Shown here: positions 8,302-15,056 of the stretch, piece after piece
Numbering within the stretch: the stretch's first letter is position 1
How the letters are laid out: each line of letters begins with the position of its first letter
Source of the DNA: Escherichia coli
Lineage (GTDB): Bacteria > Pseudomonadota > Gammaproteobacteria > Enterobacterales > Enterobacteriaceae
Assembly (NCBI RefSeq): GCF_050920415.1
Contig: NZ_CP169309.1
Strand: one strand, 5' to 3'
DNA length: 64,000 nucleotides
Program-made: the position numbers and the translations under genes
Notes under the pieces: generated by a model
The model's database searches: none
The model's input: the letters and a program-made list of their open reading frames with translations, nothing else
Told to the model about the DNA's origin: nothing

Positions 8302-9689
8302 CCACTCCAGTATGGCGTAACGATGATCTGGAAGGCGCTGTCATTGGCGCGTTTTTTCTGCGTGGGGCAGATCATGAAGTGATGGATATTCTGGCCACAC
8401 TGCCAGCGGACGTTTTTTCTGTACGAGCGTATAGGGATATCTACACAGGCATCTGCCGACAGGCTCGTGTTTCAGGTGTGATTGATCCTGTGCTGCTGTG
8501 TAATGAAATGCCGGAACTTGCTCCGGTGATTACTGATACCGGGCGTAAAACCTGGGTGAAGTCTTCACTGGAGCACTATGTTGCAGCGTTGCGGCGCAAT
8601 GCTGCATTGCGTGATGCAGAAAAAACACTGAATGAGGCGCTGCAGAAATTACGTGATGCGCATACCTGTGAAGCAGCTGAAGATGTCCTGAAGGATGCGC
8701 AGAACATGATGGCTTCATTGTCGACGGAAAAGGGCATTATTCAGCCGATACATATTGATGATGTGCTTCCGGAGGTGGTTGAGCGTGTTGAATGCCGGAA
8801 TCAGGGACTGGAGAAATCCAGAACGTTGATGACCGGTATTGAGGAGCTGGACGCAAAGACAGGTGGCATGGAGCCCGGCGACCTGGTGTTCATTGCGGCT
8901 CGTCCGTCAATGGGCAAAACCGAACTGGCGCTGGATATCATCGACAAGGTGACTGAGCAGGGGCATGGTGTTCTTCTGTTCACAATGGAAATGGCGAACA
9001 TCCAGATTGGTGAACGCATGGTATCTGCGGCTGGAGGAATGCCGGTATCACGCCTGAAATCTGTCACTCACTTTGAAGATGAAGACTGGGCGCGTTTCTC
9101 ACAAGGGGTGGGACGGATGACCGGTCGCAATATCTGGATGGTGGACCAGGCGAATCTGACCATTGATGAGATATGCGCAACAACGAAACACCACCTGATT
9201 AAACATCCGGAAACGGCGCTGGTGGTGGTTGATTATCTCGGGCTGATAAAAACCCGGAGCACGGGGCGTCATGACCTTGCCGTGGGTGAAATCTCAAAGG
9301 GGCTTAAAGGCCTGGCAAAATCCGGTGGTTTTCCGTTGATTGCGCTGAGCCAGCTCTCCCGCGGTGTGGAGTCCAGGCCCAATAAACGCCCCATGAACTC
9401 AGACCTGAAAAATTCCGGAGAAATAGAGGCGGATGCAGACATCATTCTGATGCTTTACAGGGATGAAGTGTACAACCCGGATACGCAGGCCAGGGGCATC
9501 GCAGAAATCAATATCACGAAACAACGTAACGGTTCTCTGGGGACAATTTACCGGCGTTTTTATAACGGACATTTTCTGCCTGTAGACCAGGAAAGCGCAC
9601 AGGTTCTTTCCACCCCAATGCAGCCGCCTCAGCCGCGCAGATACAGCAATAAACGAACCGACAGTAGTAAGATGGAGCGTTTCTTTTGA
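8298..9689 (+). CDS. DnaB-family replicative helicase
   Basis: RecA-like core with Walker A (ARPSMGKTELAL) and DnaB-type motifs (DYLGLI, ALSQLSRGVE). Confidence 0.85.
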   Translation: MTTPVWRNDDLEGAVIGAFFLRGADHEVMDILATLPADVFSVRAYRDIYTGICRQARVSGVIDPVLLCNEMPELAPVITDTGRKTWVKSSLEHYVAALRRNAALRDAEKTLNEALQKLRDAHTCEAAEDVLKDAQNMMASLSTEKGIIQPIHIDDVLPEVVERVECRNQGLEKSRTLMTGIEELDAKTGGMEPGDLVFIAARPSMGKTELALDIIDKVTEQGHGVLLFTMEMANIQIGERMVSAAGGMPVSRLKSVTHFEDEDWARFSQGVGRMTGRNIWMVDQANLTIDEICATTKHHLIKHPETALVVVDYLGLIKTRSTGRHDLAVGEISKGLKGLAKSGGFPLIALSQLSRGVESRPNKRPMNSDLKNSGEIEADADIILMLYRDEVYNPDTQARGIAEINITKQRNGSLGTIYRRFYNGHFLPVDQESAQVLSTPMQPPQPRRYSNKRTDSSKMERFF

Positions 9690-9943
9690 ACAACCAGACA
9701 ATGACTTTTACCCCTGAACAATTACGCAAACAGGCGCAGGAAATGCTGCGACAGGCGGAACAACTGGAAAAATCAGGCGTAACAAAAGATGCCATTCGTC
9801 GGGATATGGTACCCGCGCTCAGAGAACTGATGCAGGCAAAACACCGCGCACAAAAAGCGGTGGATGAGCTGGTGGATTGTGTGGCAGAGCTGGAAACAAA
9901 AGTTGGAAAATTTGAAAAACTGGTGCAGGAGGTACTGCGCTGA
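9686..9943 (+). CDS. Small hypothetical coiled-coil protein (probable start at ATG 9701)
   Basis: Track ORF between the helicase and the Q-like gene; no family recognised. Confidence 0.4.
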
Positions 9944-10308
9944 TGCGTGATATTCAGATGGTTCTTGAGCGTTGGGGGGCGTGGGTGGCAAATAACCACG
10001 AAGATGTTACCTGGTCGTCGATTGCTGCGGGATTCAAAGGACTGATTCCGTCAAAGGTTAAGTCACGTCCGCAATGTTGTGACGATGACGCGATGATCAT
10101 TTGTGGTTGCATGGCTCGTCTGAAAAAGAACAACCGTGACTTGCATGATCTGCTCGTGGATTATTACGTTGGGGGAATGACTTTTATGGCGCTTGCAAGG
10201 AAACATGGACGTTCAGATTGCTGGGTTGGTCGTTTGTTGCAAAAAGCAGAGGGGATCGTGGCTGGTATGTTAATGATGTTGGATGTCAAACTAGAGATGG
10301 AATATTAA
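9943..10308 (+). CDS. Late-gene antiterminator, Q-like (short QuuD-type)
   Basis: 121 aa; sequence ([24 protein letters not shown]...[20 protein letters not shown]) closely resembles what I recall of DLP12 QuuD; lies just upstream of the late/lysis region. Confidence 0.65.
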
Positions 10309-10475
10309 TTTAATTCTCATAGAATTCTTTTCTTTATGAGGGGCGAATAATGCCCCTAAACTAGAATATTATAGCTGCCTCATTATCTGGGCAGCATTAG
10401 GTTGTTGAGTGGTTTTCGCTATTAAAGCAATCATTCAAAAGGTATAAAATATGAAGCTGGGTTCTATATTAACGC

Positions 10476-11663
10476 TTACTCCATGCTAAGTGAATCCTGA
10501 TAGCGCTTAAATGCCTCCGCGAAAGCTAGAGCAGCATCAGCATTTGATACCATGTATTCTTCTGTAATGCCTGTTTGGGACTGGAAATATAACTTTCCAT
10601 AAATGCAAATTGGGATTTGATAGTTATCTTTAAATCGTCGGTCTGGTGAGCCATCTTTATTTGTTTTTGCCCATGTATGCCCAGCTATGCTGGCATCACT
10701 CGGAACACCATCCTCTTCATGGAACCCTTGATGCTGCGCATTAATTTGTAATTCCCGTAAGTCAATCAGAGCAAATGCCCCATCGGGGCGAGGAATTACA
10801 GCAATACCCGGATAAAGCAATATATCGTCGCCATTGACATTTTCAAATCGCATTGCTCTTCCAGTAAAACGAATTAGATCTGTTGAAGCGAAATCAAATA
10901 CGACTGGATGACGATCAACTGCTCGTGTAGCTAACGTCCTTTCTGCAAACTGATCTATAGCTTTATCTGCGGTAATATCCCATTTTTTGATACTTGATTT
11001 TAAAATATCGAAAGCACGAATCATTGCTGCATAAGCCCGCTGTGAGGAATCGCTGGTTTCGAAATTAATGACGATTTTAGTGTTATCTTCCCAGGATACA
11101 AGACGAGATACTTCTGCTTGTATTTGTGGTAGCGTTGCTTCAAGTTCTGCAATGCGACGTTTATAAAACCATCGAAACAGGCTTGATTTACGTCGAGCCA
11201 ATTCACTCTTTTGTCTTGATTCTTCTGCAAGAGCCTCTTGTAAGTCAGATGCTATTTCCGCTCTTTGTTCTCGTGCTTTAACGATCAAGTCTCGTAAAGG
11301 TAAAAGAGATGTACTTGTCAAGGCCTCTACTGAGGCACTGGAGATTTCATTCATGCCTGTTTGTGGCATGTACATTTTTGCGTTTGATGGGGTGTTGTCT
11401 GAAATTAACTCGGGTGCATCAATATGAGATTCTACAGACGACGGATTTAGCTGAATGGTTGTGGATGGTTTGTCTTTGTATGGTAAACGAGGGGATGTAT
11501 ACGATAAACCAGATCCTGGTAACCCTAGAGTTGCTTTAATTCCTTTTTGGTTAACATTAACTGTGGCTCCGGGGACACCAAAACTTGCGCTTACCCCATG
11601 TTTACCGATGTTAAGGCGTACTCCGGGGAAAATGGTAAAAGTTTGTCTGAAGCGAAGAGACAT
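10476..11663 (-). CDS. Cargo protein with DUF4236-like N-terminus, central coiled coil and uncharacterised C-terminal domain (395 aa)
   Basis: Long ORF opposite to the late operon in the Q-to-lysis slot; N-terminus LRFRQTFTIFPGVRLNIGKHGVSASFGVPGATVNVN matches the DUF4236 pattern; no signal peptide or TM segment. Confidence 0.75.
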   Translation of the reverse strand: MSLRFRQTFTIFPGVRLNIGKHGVSASFGVPGATVNVNQKGIKATLGLPGSGLSYTSPRLPYKDKPSTTIQLNPSSVESHIDAPELISDNTPSNAKMYMPQTGMNEISSASVEALTSTSLLPLRDLIVKAREQRAEIASDLQEALAEESRQKSELARRKSSLFRWFYKRRIAELEATLPQIQAEVSRLVSWEDNTKIVINFETSDSSQRAYAAMIRAFDILKSSIKKWDITADKAIDQFAERTLATRAVDRHPVVFDFASTDLIRFTGRAMRFENVNGDDILLYPGIAVIPRPDGAFALIDLRELQINAQHQGFHEEDGVPSDASIAGHTWAKTNKDGSPDRRFKDNYQIPICIYGKLYFQSQTGITEEYMVSNADAALAFAEAFKRYQDSLSME

Positions 11664-11693
11664 AAGATAATCCCTGTGTAGTAATGTCTAAAG

Positions 11694-11716
11694 TTACATT
11701 CCATACTGGAATGTAA
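11694..11716. promoter_or_regulatory. Perfect inverted repeat TTACATTCCA-tac-TGGAATGTAA upstream of the cargo gene (candidate operator)
   Basis: 10-bp arms with 3-bp spacer, 30-55 bp upstream of the start codon at 11663. Confidence 0.35.
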
Positions 11717-11854
11717 TACTGCGATGAGACACGAGGCTCATTAAGGATTTTGGCATTTTGCTGACATAAATTCTATAAAAATTATGGTGATAAACGTTTT
11801 ACAATCGTAAAAAAACAAATATGCTGTTAAGAGTGGTACTACGCCACACAGCTT

Positions 11855-11881
11855 AAACCCGCCGATGAGCGGGTTTTTTTG
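11855..11881 (+). terminator. Intrinsic terminator
   Basis: CCCGC-cgatga-GCGGG followed by TTTTTTT. Confidence 0.55.
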
Positions 11882-11890
11882 TGCACAGAA

Positions 11891-11913
11891 AACCCCCAGC
11901 TAGGCTGGGGGTT
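11891..11913 (-). terminator. Hairpin, probable leftward terminator
   Basis: AACCCCCAGC-tag-GCTGGGGGTT perfect inverted repeat; a T-run follows on the minus strand. Confidence 0.4.
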
Positions 11914-12036
11914 CCGGAAAGCTTTCAGCTTTGAGCCAGTTATTAAAACCCCTTTTGATTTGTTAAAACACCTTGCGGTCTGGCAACTTCTTAACTCACT
12001 TATTGTTTCCACCCATGTTTTTGGATACCTGCTGTA

Positions 12037-12074
12037 GCTGTCAGATTAGCGCGATAATCTGACAGCTTTTTTTT
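12037..12074 (+). terminator. Strong intrinsic terminator
   Basis: 12-bp stem GCTGTCAGATTA / TAATCTGACAGC followed by TTTTTTTT. Confidence 0.65.
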
Positions 12075-12363
12075 ACAACGAATCCTTCTGATCTGCTTTT
12101 GCGGGGCTTTTTTGTATCCGCTCCATGCCCGGCGTATAAGCGGAGGTTGGTCAGTTTTCTAAAAATTGAAATACCTCACAATTCAGCCAGTTAATGGTTG
12201 TTTGTCTGGCGAAGAGTTTGTAAATAAAAAAACGCATGGTGAATCCCCCTAAGCGGCGGGGCGAATCAGCAGTCAGTTCTGGGATAATCGCGGGTTCGTA
12301 TGCTGATGCCGGACTCACCGGGAGGCACCCGGCACCATGCATCATGGTCATCCCCTTGTATGA

Positions 12364-12389
12364 TACCCCTCTCCGGAGGGGTATTTTTT
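12364..12389 (+). terminator. Intrinsic terminator
   Basis: TACCCCT-ctccgg-AGGGGTA followed by TTTTTT. Confidence 0.55.
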
Positions 12390-12821
12390 GGATAAAAAAG
12401 CCCGCGCTGGGAGGCACGGGCGGCAAGGAATAAAACGTGAAGAAATTTTCACAGGCGCATAATAATCCGATGTTGCCAGATTTTGCAACTGCATCATCTG
12501 GTTATTATGTGAGCTGGAAAATCAGATTCTGTATGGACTGAAGCCATGCTGTTATTCAGGGCCAAAGAACGGACTTTTTCTTCCGCCTTTCAGGTAACGA
12601 TTAATGAGAAAAAGACTGAAATGCCCCCTCGGGGAGGAGGATAGTAGAAAAAAGAACCCGCCAGCAAAAATATTGGGGGGATGAACAGCTTTCGCTACTC
12701 TGGTTGCTGGCGGGTATAGCTCCTCATGAATAAGAATGTCGCGGTATTTTTTAATGGAAATGAGAATCATTGTCAACTGATTGCGTGTGTTGTCTTCATA
12801 CATGACTGGTAAAGGTGATTC

Positions 12822-12854
12822 AGGCCATCAGAGTTTTGCTGATGGCCTTTTTTC
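12822..12854 (+). terminator. tR'-like terminator immediately upstream of the holin gene
   Basis: AGGCCATCAG-agttttg-CTGATGGCCT followed by TTTTTTC, ~35 bp before the holin start. Confidence 0.55.
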
Positions 12855-12886
12855 TTTCCGGTAGCACAGGTCTGTCGGGGCGGGAT

Positions 12887-13102
12887 ATGTATCAGATGGA
12901 AAAAATATCAACAGGCATTGCCTACGGCACCTCCGCAGGCAGTGCTGGCTACTGGTTTTTACAGTGGCTTGATCAGGTCAGCCCGTCACAGTGGGCTGCG
13001 ATTGGTGTACTGGGAAGTCTGGTTCTGGGCTTTCTGACTTATCTGACGAATCTGTACTTCAAAATCAGAGAAGACAGAAGAAAGGCTGCGAGAGGAGAGT
13101 AA
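12887..13102 (+). CDS. Pinholin, phage-21 S21-like (71 aa)
   Basis: [71 protein letters not shown] matches what I recall of S21; track ORF 12815 trimmed to the Met after the terminator. Confidence 0.8.
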
Positions 13103-13106
13103 TATA

Positions 13107-13457
13107 ATGGTCCAAAACTATGAAATGATTGTGAAAGGGATCCGCAATTTTGAGAATAAAGTTACGGTAACTTTAGCATTACAGGACAAAGAACGCTTTG
13201 ACGGTGAAATTTTTGACCTGGACATCTCGCTGGACCGTGTTGAAGGTGCCGCGCTGGAGTTTTATGAGGCAGTAGCCAGAAGGAGCATCAGACAGGTCTT
13301 CCTGGATGTTGCTGCCGGGTTATGTGAAGGGGATGAGCAGTCGCCGGAAAAGCGCCCCGTAATTTTAGAGGCGCAGAATGTGTGGATAACCTACAAAGGA
13401 AAGCTACCAGGAAGAATTACTGGTTCTCTGAAGACTCCTCCGGAATCACAACCTTAA
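13107..13457 (+). CDS. Hypothetical 116-aa protein embedded in the lysis cassette
   Basis: Starts 4 bp after the pinholin stop and ends 63 bp before the endolysin; soluble, acidic, no family recognised. Confidence 0.5.
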   Translation: MVQNYEMIVKGIRNFENKVTVTLALQDKERFDGEIFDLDISLDRVEGAALEFYEAVARRSIRQVFLDVAAGLCEGDEQSPEKRPVILEAQNVWITYKGKLPGRITGSLKTPPESQP

Positions 13458-13520
13458 GTCACTGACCGGAACAGATAAACCTGTCCGTGGGCAGAAACCG
13501 ATAAATCCTGATAAATATCC

Positions 13521-14054
13521 ATGAACGCAAAAATCAGATACGGCCTGTCGGCTGCCGTTCTGGCACTGATTGCCGTCGGTGCTCCCGCGCCTGATATTCT
13601 CGACCAGTTTCTGGATGAAAAAGAAGGTAACCACACAACGGCATACCGCGATGGTTCCGGCATCTGGACCATCTGTCGGGGTGCCACGATGGTGGATGGA
13701 AAACCCGTTTTTCCCGGTATGAAACTGTCGAAGGAAAAATGCGACCAGGTTAACGCCATTGAACGTGATAAGGCGCTGGCATGGGTGGAGCGCAATATTA
13801 AAGTACCACTGACCGAACCACAGAAAGCGGGTATAGCGTCATTTTGTCCCTATAACATTGGCCCCGGTAAGTGTTTCCCGTCGACGTTTTATAAGCGGCT
13901 GAATGCCGGTGATCGTAAGGGTGCATGCGAGGCGATTCGCTGGTGGATAAAAGATGGTGGGCGCGATTGCCGCATACGTTCAAATAACTGCTATGGACAG
14001 GTTATTCGTCGTGACCAGGAAAGCGCATTAGCCTGTTGGGGGATAGATCAGTGA
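13521..14054 (+). CDS. SAR endolysin (GH24 T4-lysozyme-like with N-terminal signal-anchor-release segment)
   Basis: Hydrophobic N-terminus ([15 protein letters not shown]) then catalytic E-D-T region ([20 protein letters not shown]). Confidence 0.8.
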
Positions 14055-14515
14055 GCAGAGTCGCCGCGATTATTTATGCTCTGGTTATCTGCATCATCGT
14101 CTGCCTGTCGTGGGCGGTCAATCATTACCGTGATAACGCCATCGCCTACAAAGAACAGCGTGATAAAAAAGTCAGTGAGCTGAAGCAGGCGATCGCCACC
14201 ATCGCTGACATGCAGCAGCGTCAGCGTGATGTTGCTGCGCTCGATGCAAAGTACTCGAGAGAATTAGCCAATGCGAAAGCTGAAAATGAAACTCTGCGCG
14301 CTGATGTTGCCGCTGGTCGTCGTCGGTTGCACATCAAAGCAGTCTGTCAGTCAGTGCGTGAAGCCACCACCGCCTCCGGCGTGGATAATGCAACCAGCCC
14401 CCGACTGGCAGACACCGCTGAACGGGATTATTTCACCCTCAGAGAGCGGCTGATGACGATGCAGATGCAACTGGAAGGGGCACAGGAGTATATCCGCACT
14501 CAGTGCATTAAGTAG
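14051..14515 (+). CDS. Rz i-spanin
   Basis: GTG start overlapping the endolysin stop (GTGA); N-terminal TM ([19 protein letters not shown]) and coiled coils; closely resembles lambda Rz as recalled. Confidence 0.75.
14271..14453 (+). CDS. Rz1 o-spanin lipoprotein embedded in Rz (+1 frame)
   Basis: 60 aa with lipobox LPLVVVGC and PPPPP tract; near-identical to lambda Rz1 as recalled. Confidence 0.75.
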
Positions 14516-14557
14516 CCTTTTTATCGTGGTAAACATTTCGCAGGGTATGAGGTATTT

Positions 14558-14908
14558 ATGCCATCACGAATCCCACGCGCCTGCCGTAAGCGTGGATGTG
14601 CAGGTACAACCACAGACAGTTCTGGTTACTGCGATAAACATCGTGGCGAAGGATGGGTACAGCATCAACGCGGACTGAGCCGCCACCAGCGTGGCTATGG
14701 CTCGAAATGGGATGCCATACGTGCGCGCATACTGAAGCGTGATAATCATCTGTGTCAGAACTGCCTGCGCAATGGGAGAGCCGTTGAAGCCAGAACTGTG
14801 GACCACATCATTCCGAAAGCTCATGGTGGCACGGATGCAGACAGTAACCTGCAGAGTCTGTGCTGGCCCTGTCATAAAGCAAAAACAGCGCGCGAACGCA
14901 TCAATTGA
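14558..14908 (+). CDS. HNH endonuclease (terminase-associated)
   Basis: Cys-rich HNH motif (HLCQNCL...DHIIPKAHGG...CWPCH) directly upstream of terS/terL. Confidence 0.75.
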   Translation: MPSRIPRACRKRGCAGTTTDSSGYCDKHRGEGWVQHQRGLSRHQRGYGSKWDAIRARILKRDNHLCQNCLRNGRAVEARTVDHIIPKAHGGTDADSNLQSLCWPCHKAKTARERIN

Positions 14909-15056
14909 TAACAGTTCCCATCTGTAGGGGAGGGGCGGGTCAAATCTCTGCAACCCTGGCTGCTCAGTACCGCCGCCTGACCCTTCCTCACATCGCCGCA
15001 GGTTCGAAAACTTTTTTTTGGAAATGTGAACAAACGATTGATAGGTAAGACCGATT

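Follow-up and report, generated by a model that had tools for sequence, protein, structure and literature searches.

The 64,000-nucleotide (nt) stretch of Escherichia coli DNA analysed here (contig NZ_CP169309.1 of assembly GCF_050920415.1), which we call the window, represents a lambdoid prophage. Downstream of its replication genes, a tract at 11664-12886 separates a cargo gene from the first late gene, which codes for a holin. This tract is very probably the untranslated leader of the late (lysis and morphogenesis) operon, assembled as a mosaic of known modules: a late promoter, pR', under the control of the antiterminator Q, a series of terminators, and small RNA (sRNA) genes. The stacked terminators are real and are of kinds already described in Shiga-toxin (Stx) and related prophages. 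The modules, their homologies and their order could be read directly from alignments with related loci. Every component that was identified belongs to a known kind, and a conserved, uncharacterised element lies just before the holin gene.

A Q-type late promoter displaced behind a moron

The Q gene that would serve this promoter is located upstream of the tract (Table 1). Protein comparison gave 83% identity to the Q protein of phage H-19B and 84% to QuuD of prophage DLP12; the protein is also related to Q21, for which structures have been solved (6p18, E 3.5e-9). Homology to DLP12 breaks off at 10301, at the end of Q, and picks up again at 11798, and the cargo gene in between is therefore a moron. 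This gene specifies 395 amino acids (aa), is annotated as DUF4236 in genomes that are 99.7% identical, and lies within a block found with 99.7% identity in 11 E. coli genomes. The same slot between Q and pR' is occupied by nmpC in DLP12, by a gene for a CAAX protease in Sakai prophage Sp4 and by an ORF6N gene in strain Z1322HEC0003 (locus L018). Thus, pR' is separated from Q by a 1.5-kb moron here and is similarly displaced in these three relatives, so that adjacency to Q is not obligatory in this subfamily. The insertion site lies, in all four cases, between Q codon ~120 and the -35 element of pR', and the C-terminus of Q is accordingly variable (121, 127, 128 or 144 aa).

Where homology resumes, comparison with relatives identifies 11798-11882 as pR' together with the initial transcribed region and the first of the hairpin terminators. 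A promoter scan matched 9 of 12 positions. The promoter can be aligned without gaps to the 'putative late promoter' of VT1-Sakai and to the corresponding segments of H-19B, DLP12, Sp4, Sp5 and L018, and the aligned positions of VT1-Sakai are annotated as a Q-utilization site (qut) and as a 'rho-independent terminator for pR' transcript'. Altogether, 85 nt counted from 11798 can be aligned with VT1-Sakai, H-19B, Sakai Sp4 and Sp5, and with DLP12, where the homologous segment lies 120-200 nt upstream of essD. The core motif, defined as TTTACR-N2-CGTAAAAA...TAAGAGTGG, occurred in seven fetched loci, all of which have this type of Q, and in no locus with another Q type. Three hallmarks of a Q-dependent late cassette are thus present: a Q gene whose family has been characterised, a sigma-70 promoter with homology to a mapped late promoter, and an intrinsic terminator ahead of the late genes.

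The homologous promoter of strain Sakai has been mapped by differential RNA sequencing and Term-seq (PMC7547250): it is constitutively active and yields a 258-nt terminated transcript, the precursor of the sRNA StxS. If 258 nt are counted back along the VT1-Sakai sequence, the start falls 7-8 nt past the -10 hexamer, and from this pR'-to-tR' distance we infer that transcription in the window would start at about A11832. The best conserved part of the alignment is the initial transcribed region, AAGAGTGG-TAC; no Q-binding element (QBE) or sigma-dependent pause element (SDPE) has been defined for this Q subtype. StxS itself was considered and rejected, as the 3' 74-nt sRNA part of the pR' transcript is absent: the StxS-S region has no match in the window, and the pR'-tR' query from VT1-Sakai (L011, 1495-1800) matches over its nt 7-99 only. 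We also observed that the hairpin proximal to pR' (11855-11877) has a counterpart with 96% identity across 23 nt in the K-12 prophage Qin (L016, 6361-6384), a hairpin that sits ~110 nt downstream of quuQ (ydfT); the Qin antiterminator is unrelated and Q82-like.

A stack of terminators in a tract devoid of conserved reading frames

Terminator-like sites are clearly overrepresented in the tract: nine were counted in 11664-12886, for 1.3 +/- 1.2 in dinucleotide shuffles, and 13 in the larger interval 9000-15000, for 5.7 +/- 2.1. A preceding interpretation, made from the letters alone and hereafter called the sequence-only reading, had proposed four plus-strand terminators (at about 11855, 12037, 12364 and 12822) and one on the minus strand (about 11891). 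The pattern scan and the folds recovered the four plus-strand sites at the proposed places, with fold z-scores of -2.8 to -5.4 against shuffles. The minus-strand hairpin is equally real; it was not listed by the pattern scan and stands out by its folding energy (Table 1). Two more minus-strand sites had escaped that reading. What has to be amended is the notion of a uniform stack of leader terminators, since the hairpin at about 11891 belongs to the remnant of an insertion sequence (IS) and the site at 12364 is the 3' end of an sRNA gene (see below).

The view that the tract has no convincing open reading frame (ORF) is also borne out. The listed ORFs, of 31-91 aa, are not conserved across homologues, which differ by insertions and deletions (indels) that are not multiples of three, and we rejected them as genes. 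It had been added that these ORFs lack a Shine-Dalgarno (SD) sequence, which holds in general with one exception, a GTG start at 12437 with an SD-like AAGGA 8 nt upstream; this ORF meets a stop after two codons in the Sakai Sp4 homologue. A 63-aa hypothetical coding sequence (CDS) annotated just upstream of the holin gene in a 95%-identical relative is interrupted by stops in the window. The absence of transfer RNA (tRNA) genes was likewise confirmed: ARAGORN found none in the whole window, nor did the tRNA model of Rfam, and relatives carry tRNA genes exactly at this position, where both annotation and Rfam detect them. A pseudo-tRNA was also rejected, as alignment to the argO regions of relatives leaves the 3' flank only.

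Many E. coli prophages have, upstream of their class II holin genes, a block that shares 95-96% identity with 11987-12886. Among 5426 complete genomes, no other has both junctions of the tract, and this particular mosaic is unique in the set searched. A full-text literature search returned no paper containing the hairpin sequences. Rfam matches to SgrS, Qrr and the trp leader were dismissed, as they all fall below the gathering scores and rest mainly on the terminators.

A convergent pair of sRNA genes

The sequence-only reading had suggested one or more sRNAs, and this proved well founded: two Rfam families exceed their gathering thresholds in the tract, and a third sRNA family, known from enterohaemorrhagic (EHEC) and enteropathogenic (EPEC) E. 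coli, is present on the minus strand. The strongest match is to STnc100 (RF02076), with 114.5 bits for a gathering score of 47 (E 2.6e-25), and it spans the model in full, from position 1 to 206. At the Hfq peak EcOnc05, Sakai Sp4 shares 77% identity with the region. Six related loci have a family member at the corresponding position, among them Sp5, whose member is EcOnc27/sRNA103 and is convergent with AsxR, and Sp4, whose member coincides with EcOnc05. The consensus fold shows compensatory changes in 5 of 31 pairs, for a small sample of eight sequences. The copy in the window has kept the 8-bp closing helix and the terminator intact. Its first 17 nt are 94% identical to the 5' end of PasD, an RNA that is related to STnc100 (Zhu, Shabalina and Storz, 2026 preprint), and its own 5' end is probably at G12234 (GCAUGGUGAAUCC), as for PasD in EPEC. 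In EHEC and EPEC, northern blots, Hfq-CRAC or RIL-seq have revealed members of the family, which are abundant Hfq ligands there; the homologues have lengths of ~222 nt (EcOnc05) and 172 nt (PasD, by northern blot and RIL-seq).

The minus-strand partner (12470→12394) shares 81% identity across 86 nt with the 3' part of the RNA from the EPEC E2348C_1409-1408 intergenic region (IGR) and aligns with Sakai EcOnc08. The scan found a promoter-like site that would give a ~58-nt RNA, and its TATTAT together with the upstream TTGC is also found in the EPEC and Sakai copies. Upstream of 12470, there is no homology to the EPEC and EHEC family members. The two terminators are back to back, with ~15 nt between the minus-strand one and the point where the STnc100 stem ends. 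Eight Sakai prophages have been described as carrying convergent genes for Hfq-binding sRNAs at the moron site that follows pR' (Tree et al. 2014, PMC4104026; PMC7873438). By homology, the pair in the window has this known arrangement, which thus extends to non-Stx prophages, and both RNAs are expected to act as Hfq-binding riboregulators in the lysogen. The anti-sRNAs AsxR and AgvB (RF02703, RF02702) were rejected as the minus-strand partner: neither gave a match at E<=1 in 9000-15000, while the same tool detects AsxR in Sp5, and the terminator end alone aligns.

An IS200 scar and other remnants

The second Rfam family above threshold, STnc490 (RF01405), scores 72.3 bits at 11880-11988 for a gathering score of 56, with poor alignment in the 3' third of the model. 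This segment matches the left end of IS200, with 99% identity to an intact element in phage Lambda_ev058 and 100% to IS200C of strain E2348/69. It is known that nt 12-34 of IS200 form a bidirectional rho-independent terminator that blocks impinging transcription, and that the transcription start of tnpA lies near nt 40 (Ellis et al. 2015, PMC4513863). The presence of an IS200 left end accounts for the minus-strand hairpin at about 11891, and by sequence identity 11891-11913 is the bidirectional terminator of the IS rather than a phage element. The remnant has no tnpA, no right end, no art200 promoter and no 5' part of that RNA, being truncated inside the stem-loop of the 5' untranslated region (5'-UTR). 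As tnpA and the art200 promoter are missing, it is not a functional sRNA gene, and a working art200 was rejected even though the Rfam threshold is reached.

Comparison with Z1322HEC0003 suggests how the scar arose. The left junction is identical in that strain (100% over 142 nt), but IS200C is intact there and is followed by a small ORF, a helix-turn-helix (HTH) gene, tRNA-Ile/Arg/Arg, the sRNA dyad and an esterase gene. This makes the window a deletion derivative, and what the deletion removed would be the IS200 body, the small ORFs and the tRNA cluster that relatives still possess. In prophage PP5 of E2348/69 (L006, 3566-3600 and 5151-5241), the left-end hairpin of IS200C is split by ISEc13; that locus also has STnc100 and PasC.

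Right of the scar, the region 11989-12091 is 99% identical to FDAARGOS_1058 (L001, 3960-4095), in which a TTGACC-18-TAAAAA(T) sequence lies a few nt left of the junction and is followed, ~95 nt on, by a 13-bp hairpin with T9. The terminator at 12036-12067 thus closes an sRNA-like unit of ~95 nt that lost its promoter in the window. The unit is not annotated in FDAARGOS_1058 and belongs to no Rfam family; the copy in the window has no Rfam match and no homologue in phage records. In the window, the IS200 remnant replaces the promoter of the unit, and the weak tnpA start (~11919) could now drive it. The next segment, 12092-12125, consists of a 5-bp stem followed by a T run in the scan and, from its alignment, is a relic of a tRNA cluster of the ileZ-argN-argO type that relatives still carry at this position. 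More generally, sequenced phages have essentially no homologues of 11989-12165 or of 12471-12840, so that there was no annotation to borrow.

The sequence-only reading had stated that an alignment showing nothing but an ordinary pR'-tR' leader with degenerate remnants would refute it. Part of the stack does fit that description, namely the IS200 scar, the promoter-less sRNA-like unit and the flank of the tRNA cluster.

A conserved element upstream of the holin gene

The last part of the tract, 12493-12853, contains a widespread element. Copies that are ~82% identical were found in 1430 of the 5426 E. coli genomes. It is found in 643 places on plasmids, beside Rz/Rz1 remnants and the virulence gene iss, and also in chromosomes of sequence type 131 (ST131). 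Despite this divergence, a 27-nt stretch and the terminator 12822-12848 are invariant across copies, and an Stx1d prophage has this 3' module (12794-12853) on its own, at a distance of 37 nt from the class II holin gene that follows. On the minus strand, the sequence reads as a unit with a perfect TTGACA as its -35 element and a predicted RNA of ~90 nt. We noticed that the copies on ColV-type plasmids, of which there are hundreds (L014, 3501-3854, and L015, 3501-3860, are examples), lie between an IS remnant and the Rz/Rz1 remnants with iss, and that in plasmid and ST131 copies the holin and endolysin genes are gone.

The element matches no Rfam family above threshold, and no ORF is conserved across its homologues. 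There is a sub-threshold match to SgrS (RF00534) at 12634-12853 (29.4 bits for a cutoff of 37, E 3.4e-5), due mainly to the terminator and to UGACUG-GUAAAGGUG, where SgrS has UGACUGAGUAUUGGUG; the core that pairs with ptsG is not kept. PasA, PasB and PasC, which lie beside holin genes in EPEC, were considered as relatives and rejected, as BLAST with a word size of 7 gave no significant similarity. None of the papers covered by the full-text literature search contains sequences of the element.

Two observations concern its possible structure. In the minimum free energy (MFE) fold, 12790-12804 (UUGUCU..CAUACAU) pairs with the start region of the holin gene, 12886-12899, thereby enclosing the 12822 terminator; such a helix would occlude both start codons. 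This pairing is not significant (z -1.5), and both of its sides are invariant, hence the lack of covariation. The sole substitution within the 12-bp stem 12658-12716 is a C to T change, near 12705-12716, in the plasmid copy L014, which keeps a G-U pair in the plus-strand RNA and gives an A-C mismatch in the minus-strand RNA. This one change hints that the hairpin may be of importance on the plus strand.

The simplest role for the terminator at 12822 is that of a last barrier before a lethal gene. A more elaborate proposal is that 12493-12853 is an undescribed functional RNA module, comprising a minus-strand sRNA of ~90 nt and a plus-strand RNA or leader, close to the terminator, whose invariant 27-nt stretch would pair with the dual starts of the holin gene and so set the holin/antiholin ratio, or which would act in trans; its retention on plasmids and in ST131 would then reflect selection. 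We regard this proposal as speculative and rather unlikely.

A model for the tract and its rivals

For promoter activity, termination, read-through by Q and sRNA expression in this strain, we infer from the mapped relatives rather than observe, and the following scenario is to be understood in that sense. The promoter pR' would fire constitutively from about 11832. In the lysogen, its transcript would be stopped at the proximal hairpin terminator 11855-11876, and transcripts that escape, or that originate within the tract, would meet the IS200 terminator (11891-11913), then those at 12036, 12362 (STnc100) and 12822 before they could reach the holin gene. Upon induction, the H-19B/QuuD-type Q would load onto polymerase paused just downstream of pR', and the modified, terminator-resistant enzyme would read through the whole stack into S, R and Rz. 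The two convergent sRNA genes embedded in the leader would have promoters and terminators of their own, and terminators would also provide insulation. The sequence-only reading had placed pR', qut and tR' in this interval in related phages and had suggested control by Q-dependent read-through. Homology to VT1-Sakai, H-19B and DLP12 does put the three elements within 11798-11882, with a cognate Q upstream; the suggested read-through gains support from this cassette, its operation in the present strain being deduced by analogy.

Several facts weigh against this model. Positions 11834-11840 read GTGG-TAC where DLP12, H-19B, VT1-Sakai, an O158 relative (L009), Sp4 (L013) and L018 read GTGGTTAC; this 1-nt deletion in the initial transcribed region relative to most homologues, which is common to strain 52F4, could shift the sigma-dependent pause element and impair Q loading. 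The Q protein itself is shorter than that of H-19B (121 versus 144 aa), the last ~23 residues being missing and protein identity ending at residue 120. In Stx phages, the mapped 258-nt pR' transcript does not stop at the counterpart of the first hairpin but continues to a second terminator, and this second tR' is missing from the tract. As for the sRNAs, the minus-strand gene retains the 3' ~80 nt only of RNAs that are ~180-270 nt long in EPEC and EHEC, and the putative sRNA promoters have weak or non-canonical -10 elements. Lastly, the model leaves the pre-holin element 12493-12853 unexplained.

How far could the stack be mere evolutionary debris? Passing morons and ISs may have left their terminators behind, in which case nothing beyond pR' and the first hairpin would have a selected role and the sRNA genes would be silent or decaying. 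The non-functional IS200 remnant, the unit at 12036 without its promoter and the leftover tRNA-cluster flank at 12092-12125 are what one would expect from such a history; so are the variable block boundaries between prophages and the pairing of two junctions that recurs in no other complete genome. As far as the scar and the remnants in 11989-12165 are concerned, this explanation is partly true. But it fails to explain the intact and widely conserved STnc100 dyad: the covariance model is matched over its full length, closing helix and terminator are preserved, the dyad is retained at this position across prophages with different morons, and its relatives are abundant Hfq ligands in EHEC and EPEC. 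Neither would it account for a module, 12794-12853, that is invariant among homologues otherwise ~82% identical. As an explanation of the stack as a whole, we thus hold debris to be improbable.

Two other explanations fare far worse than the Q-controlled leader. Since phages lambda, 21, 82 and H-19B have their late promoter next to the end of Q or overlapping it, one might look for pR' directly after Q, at 10309-10475, with late transcription running antisense through the cargo gene and the element at 11798 being a separate promoter. However, the scan found no plus-strand promoter-like site in 10309-10475, homology to DLP12 Q and to H-19B Q stops at the very end of the gene, and the counterpart of the H-19B promoter, which in H-19B overlaps the Q gene at its end, lies at 11798, displaced behind a moron as it is in DLP12, Sp4 and L018; we give this arrangement very little credit. 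It is even harder to believe that the tract encodes small proteins or degenerate tRNAs missed by the tools. The 63-aa CDS annotated in a relative, the 12437 ORF with its AAGGA and the folding of the STnc100 core into a multi-arm junction closed by an 8-bp helix could be invoked in its favour, yet the former is stop-interrupted in the window, the second is reduced to two codons in Sp4, the indels do not respect a reading frame, and ARAGORN and the Rfam tRNA model are silent on the window while the tRNAs of relatives are readily found.

Features of the tract and of its surroundings

Downstream of the tract, whose right edge at 12886 is correct, the holin gene begins at 12887; its homologues are annotated 'class II holin family protein'. 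The lysis cassette is intact, the holin gene being followed by a YdfR-like gene, lysozyme, Rz/Rz1 and then the terminase genes. In the early region of the window, 4828-5669, we observed two tandem pairs of Rfam matches to isrK (4828-4904 and 5481-5557) and to the C4 antisense RNA (4929-5016 and 5582-5669), all four above gathering thresholds; this is an immunity/antirepressor control region of the P1/P7 or Gifsy type, in duplicate.

Table 1. Features of the leader tract and of the genes next to it (minus-strand features that are read right to left are given with an arrow)
Feature	Position	Strand	Details
Q antiterminator gene, H-19B/QuuD type, 121 aa	9943-10308	+	outside the tract; cognate regulator
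Moron between Q and pR'	10302-11797	-	DUF4236 cargo gene 10476-11663 and AT-rich upstream region 11664-11797
Late promoter pR' (by homology)	11798-11825	+	-35 TTTACA 11798-11803, 16-nt spacer, -10 TATGCT 11820-11825
pR' leader	11832-11882	+	predicted start ~A11832, initial transcribed region (qut/pause region), hairpin 11855-11876 with T7
Hairpin terminator	11855-11876	+	8 bp, T7; -12.7 kcal/mol
IS200 left-end remnant, ~nt 1-109 of 707 bp	11880-11988	+	terminator hairpin 11891-11913 and tnpA start-site region
Hairpin terminator	11913→11891	-	-20.4 kcal/mol, z -4.3; then UUUUCUG
5'-truncated sRNA-like unit	11989-12091	+	ends in 13-bp hairpin terminator 12036-12067, T8
Hairpin terminator	12036-12067	+	13 bp, T8; -20.0 kcal/mol, z -5.4
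Weak terminator and flank remnant following the argO tRNA gene in Stx-type prophages	12092-12125	+	aligns 3' of argO in Sakai Sp5 and Sp4
STnc100/PasD/EcOnc05-family sRNA gene	12205-12393	+	upstream conservation from 12166; terminator 12362-12385
Hairpin terminator	12362-12385	+	10 bp; -17.6 kcal/mol
Convergent EcOnc08/21/42-family sRNA (EPEC E2348C_1409-1408 IGR)	12470-12394	-	terminator 12421→12400
Hairpin/T-run site	12421→12400	-	fold -16.7 kcal/mol; absent from the sequence-only reading
Promoter-like site of the minus-strand sRNA	12488→12459	-	TTGCAA-18-TATTAT (scan)
Conserved uncharacterised pre-holin element	12493-12853		ends in the 12822 terminator
Hairpin/T-run site	12716→12658	-	12-bp hairpin; -26.6 kcal/mol; absent from the sequence-only reading
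Minus-strand unit of the pre-holin element	12776→12649	-	TTGACA-17-TAAAAA 12776→12748; hairpin 12716→12658; T run 12657→12649
Plus-strand module of the pre-holin element	12794-12853	+	invariant 27-nt stretch, then terminator 12822-12848
Hairpin terminator	12822-12848	+	10 bp, T6; -17.3 kcal/mol
Class II (S21-type) holin gene, first late gene	12887-13102	+	dual start M-Y-Q-M: Met1 12887, Met4 12896

Significance and comparison with known systems

Current understanding of Q antitermination and of prophage sRNAs is not changed by this tract. It illustrates how the leader of the late genes serves as a landing pad in prophages: the Q cassette is kept, and morons, ISs, tRNAs and sRNA genes are swapped. 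There are also lessons for annotation. In prophages of the H-19B/QuuD type, pR' can be found more than 1 kb away from Q, behind a moron; an Rfam match to 'STnc490' can be a dead IS200 scar; dyads of the STnc100/EcOnc type extend to non-Stx prophages; and a widespread pre-holin element, present also beside iss on ColV plasmids, has no assigned function.

The closest parallels to the late promoter are the pR'-qut-tR' cassettes of the Stx phages H-19B, 933W and VT1-Sakai and of DLP12 (quuD...essD), which have a Q of the same family. The -35 and -10 elements, the initial transcribed region and the first hairpin are homologous, with ~80-84% identity over ~80-95 nt, and in DLP12 the downstream lysis genes are S21-type as in the window. 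There are differences, too: pR' overlaps the end of a 144-aa Q in H-19B, whereas in the window it follows a reverse-oriented moron of 1.5 kb and the Q gene is shorter; and the 258-nt StxS transcript with its 74-nt processed sRNA and second tR' is absent, homology stopping after the first hairpin.

With IS200 and its antisense RNA art200 (STnc490), the tract has in common the first ~109 nt of IS200C, 99-100% identical and including the terminator hairpin; the fragment is a scar, neither an IS nor a gene for a functional antisense RNA. The likeness to STnc100, to PasD1 and PasD2 of EPEC and to EcOnc13, EcOnc05 and EcOnc27 (sRNA103) of EHEC goes much further: the prophage context is alike, and the window copy has the closing helix GCAUGGUGAAUCC...CACCAUGC, the internal hairpins and the intrinsic terminator. 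What differs from PasD is the linker between closing helix and terminator, which holds the seed and is unrelated in the window, so that PasD targets are not transferable.

As to the dyads of Tree et al. (EcOnc05/EcOnc08-21 in Sp4, EcOnc27/AsxR in Sp5 and EcOnc06/AgvB), the same convergent pair stands between pR' and the lysis genes, and it is the Sp4 dyad that the window pair resembles (77% identity). Its minus-strand member is of the EcOnc08 type and not an anti-sRNA like AsxR or AgvB, and neither a moron CDS nor tRNA genes precede the dyad. Finally, the logic is that of pR', 6S RNA and tR' in phage lambda, i.e. a constitutive late promoter, a proximal pause at which Q is loaded, a short leader RNA that is terminated in lysogens, and processive antitermination into S. 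However, the Q family of lambda is unrelated to the Q21/H-19B type found here, and where lambda has a single tR', the window has several terminators with sRNA genes embedded among them.

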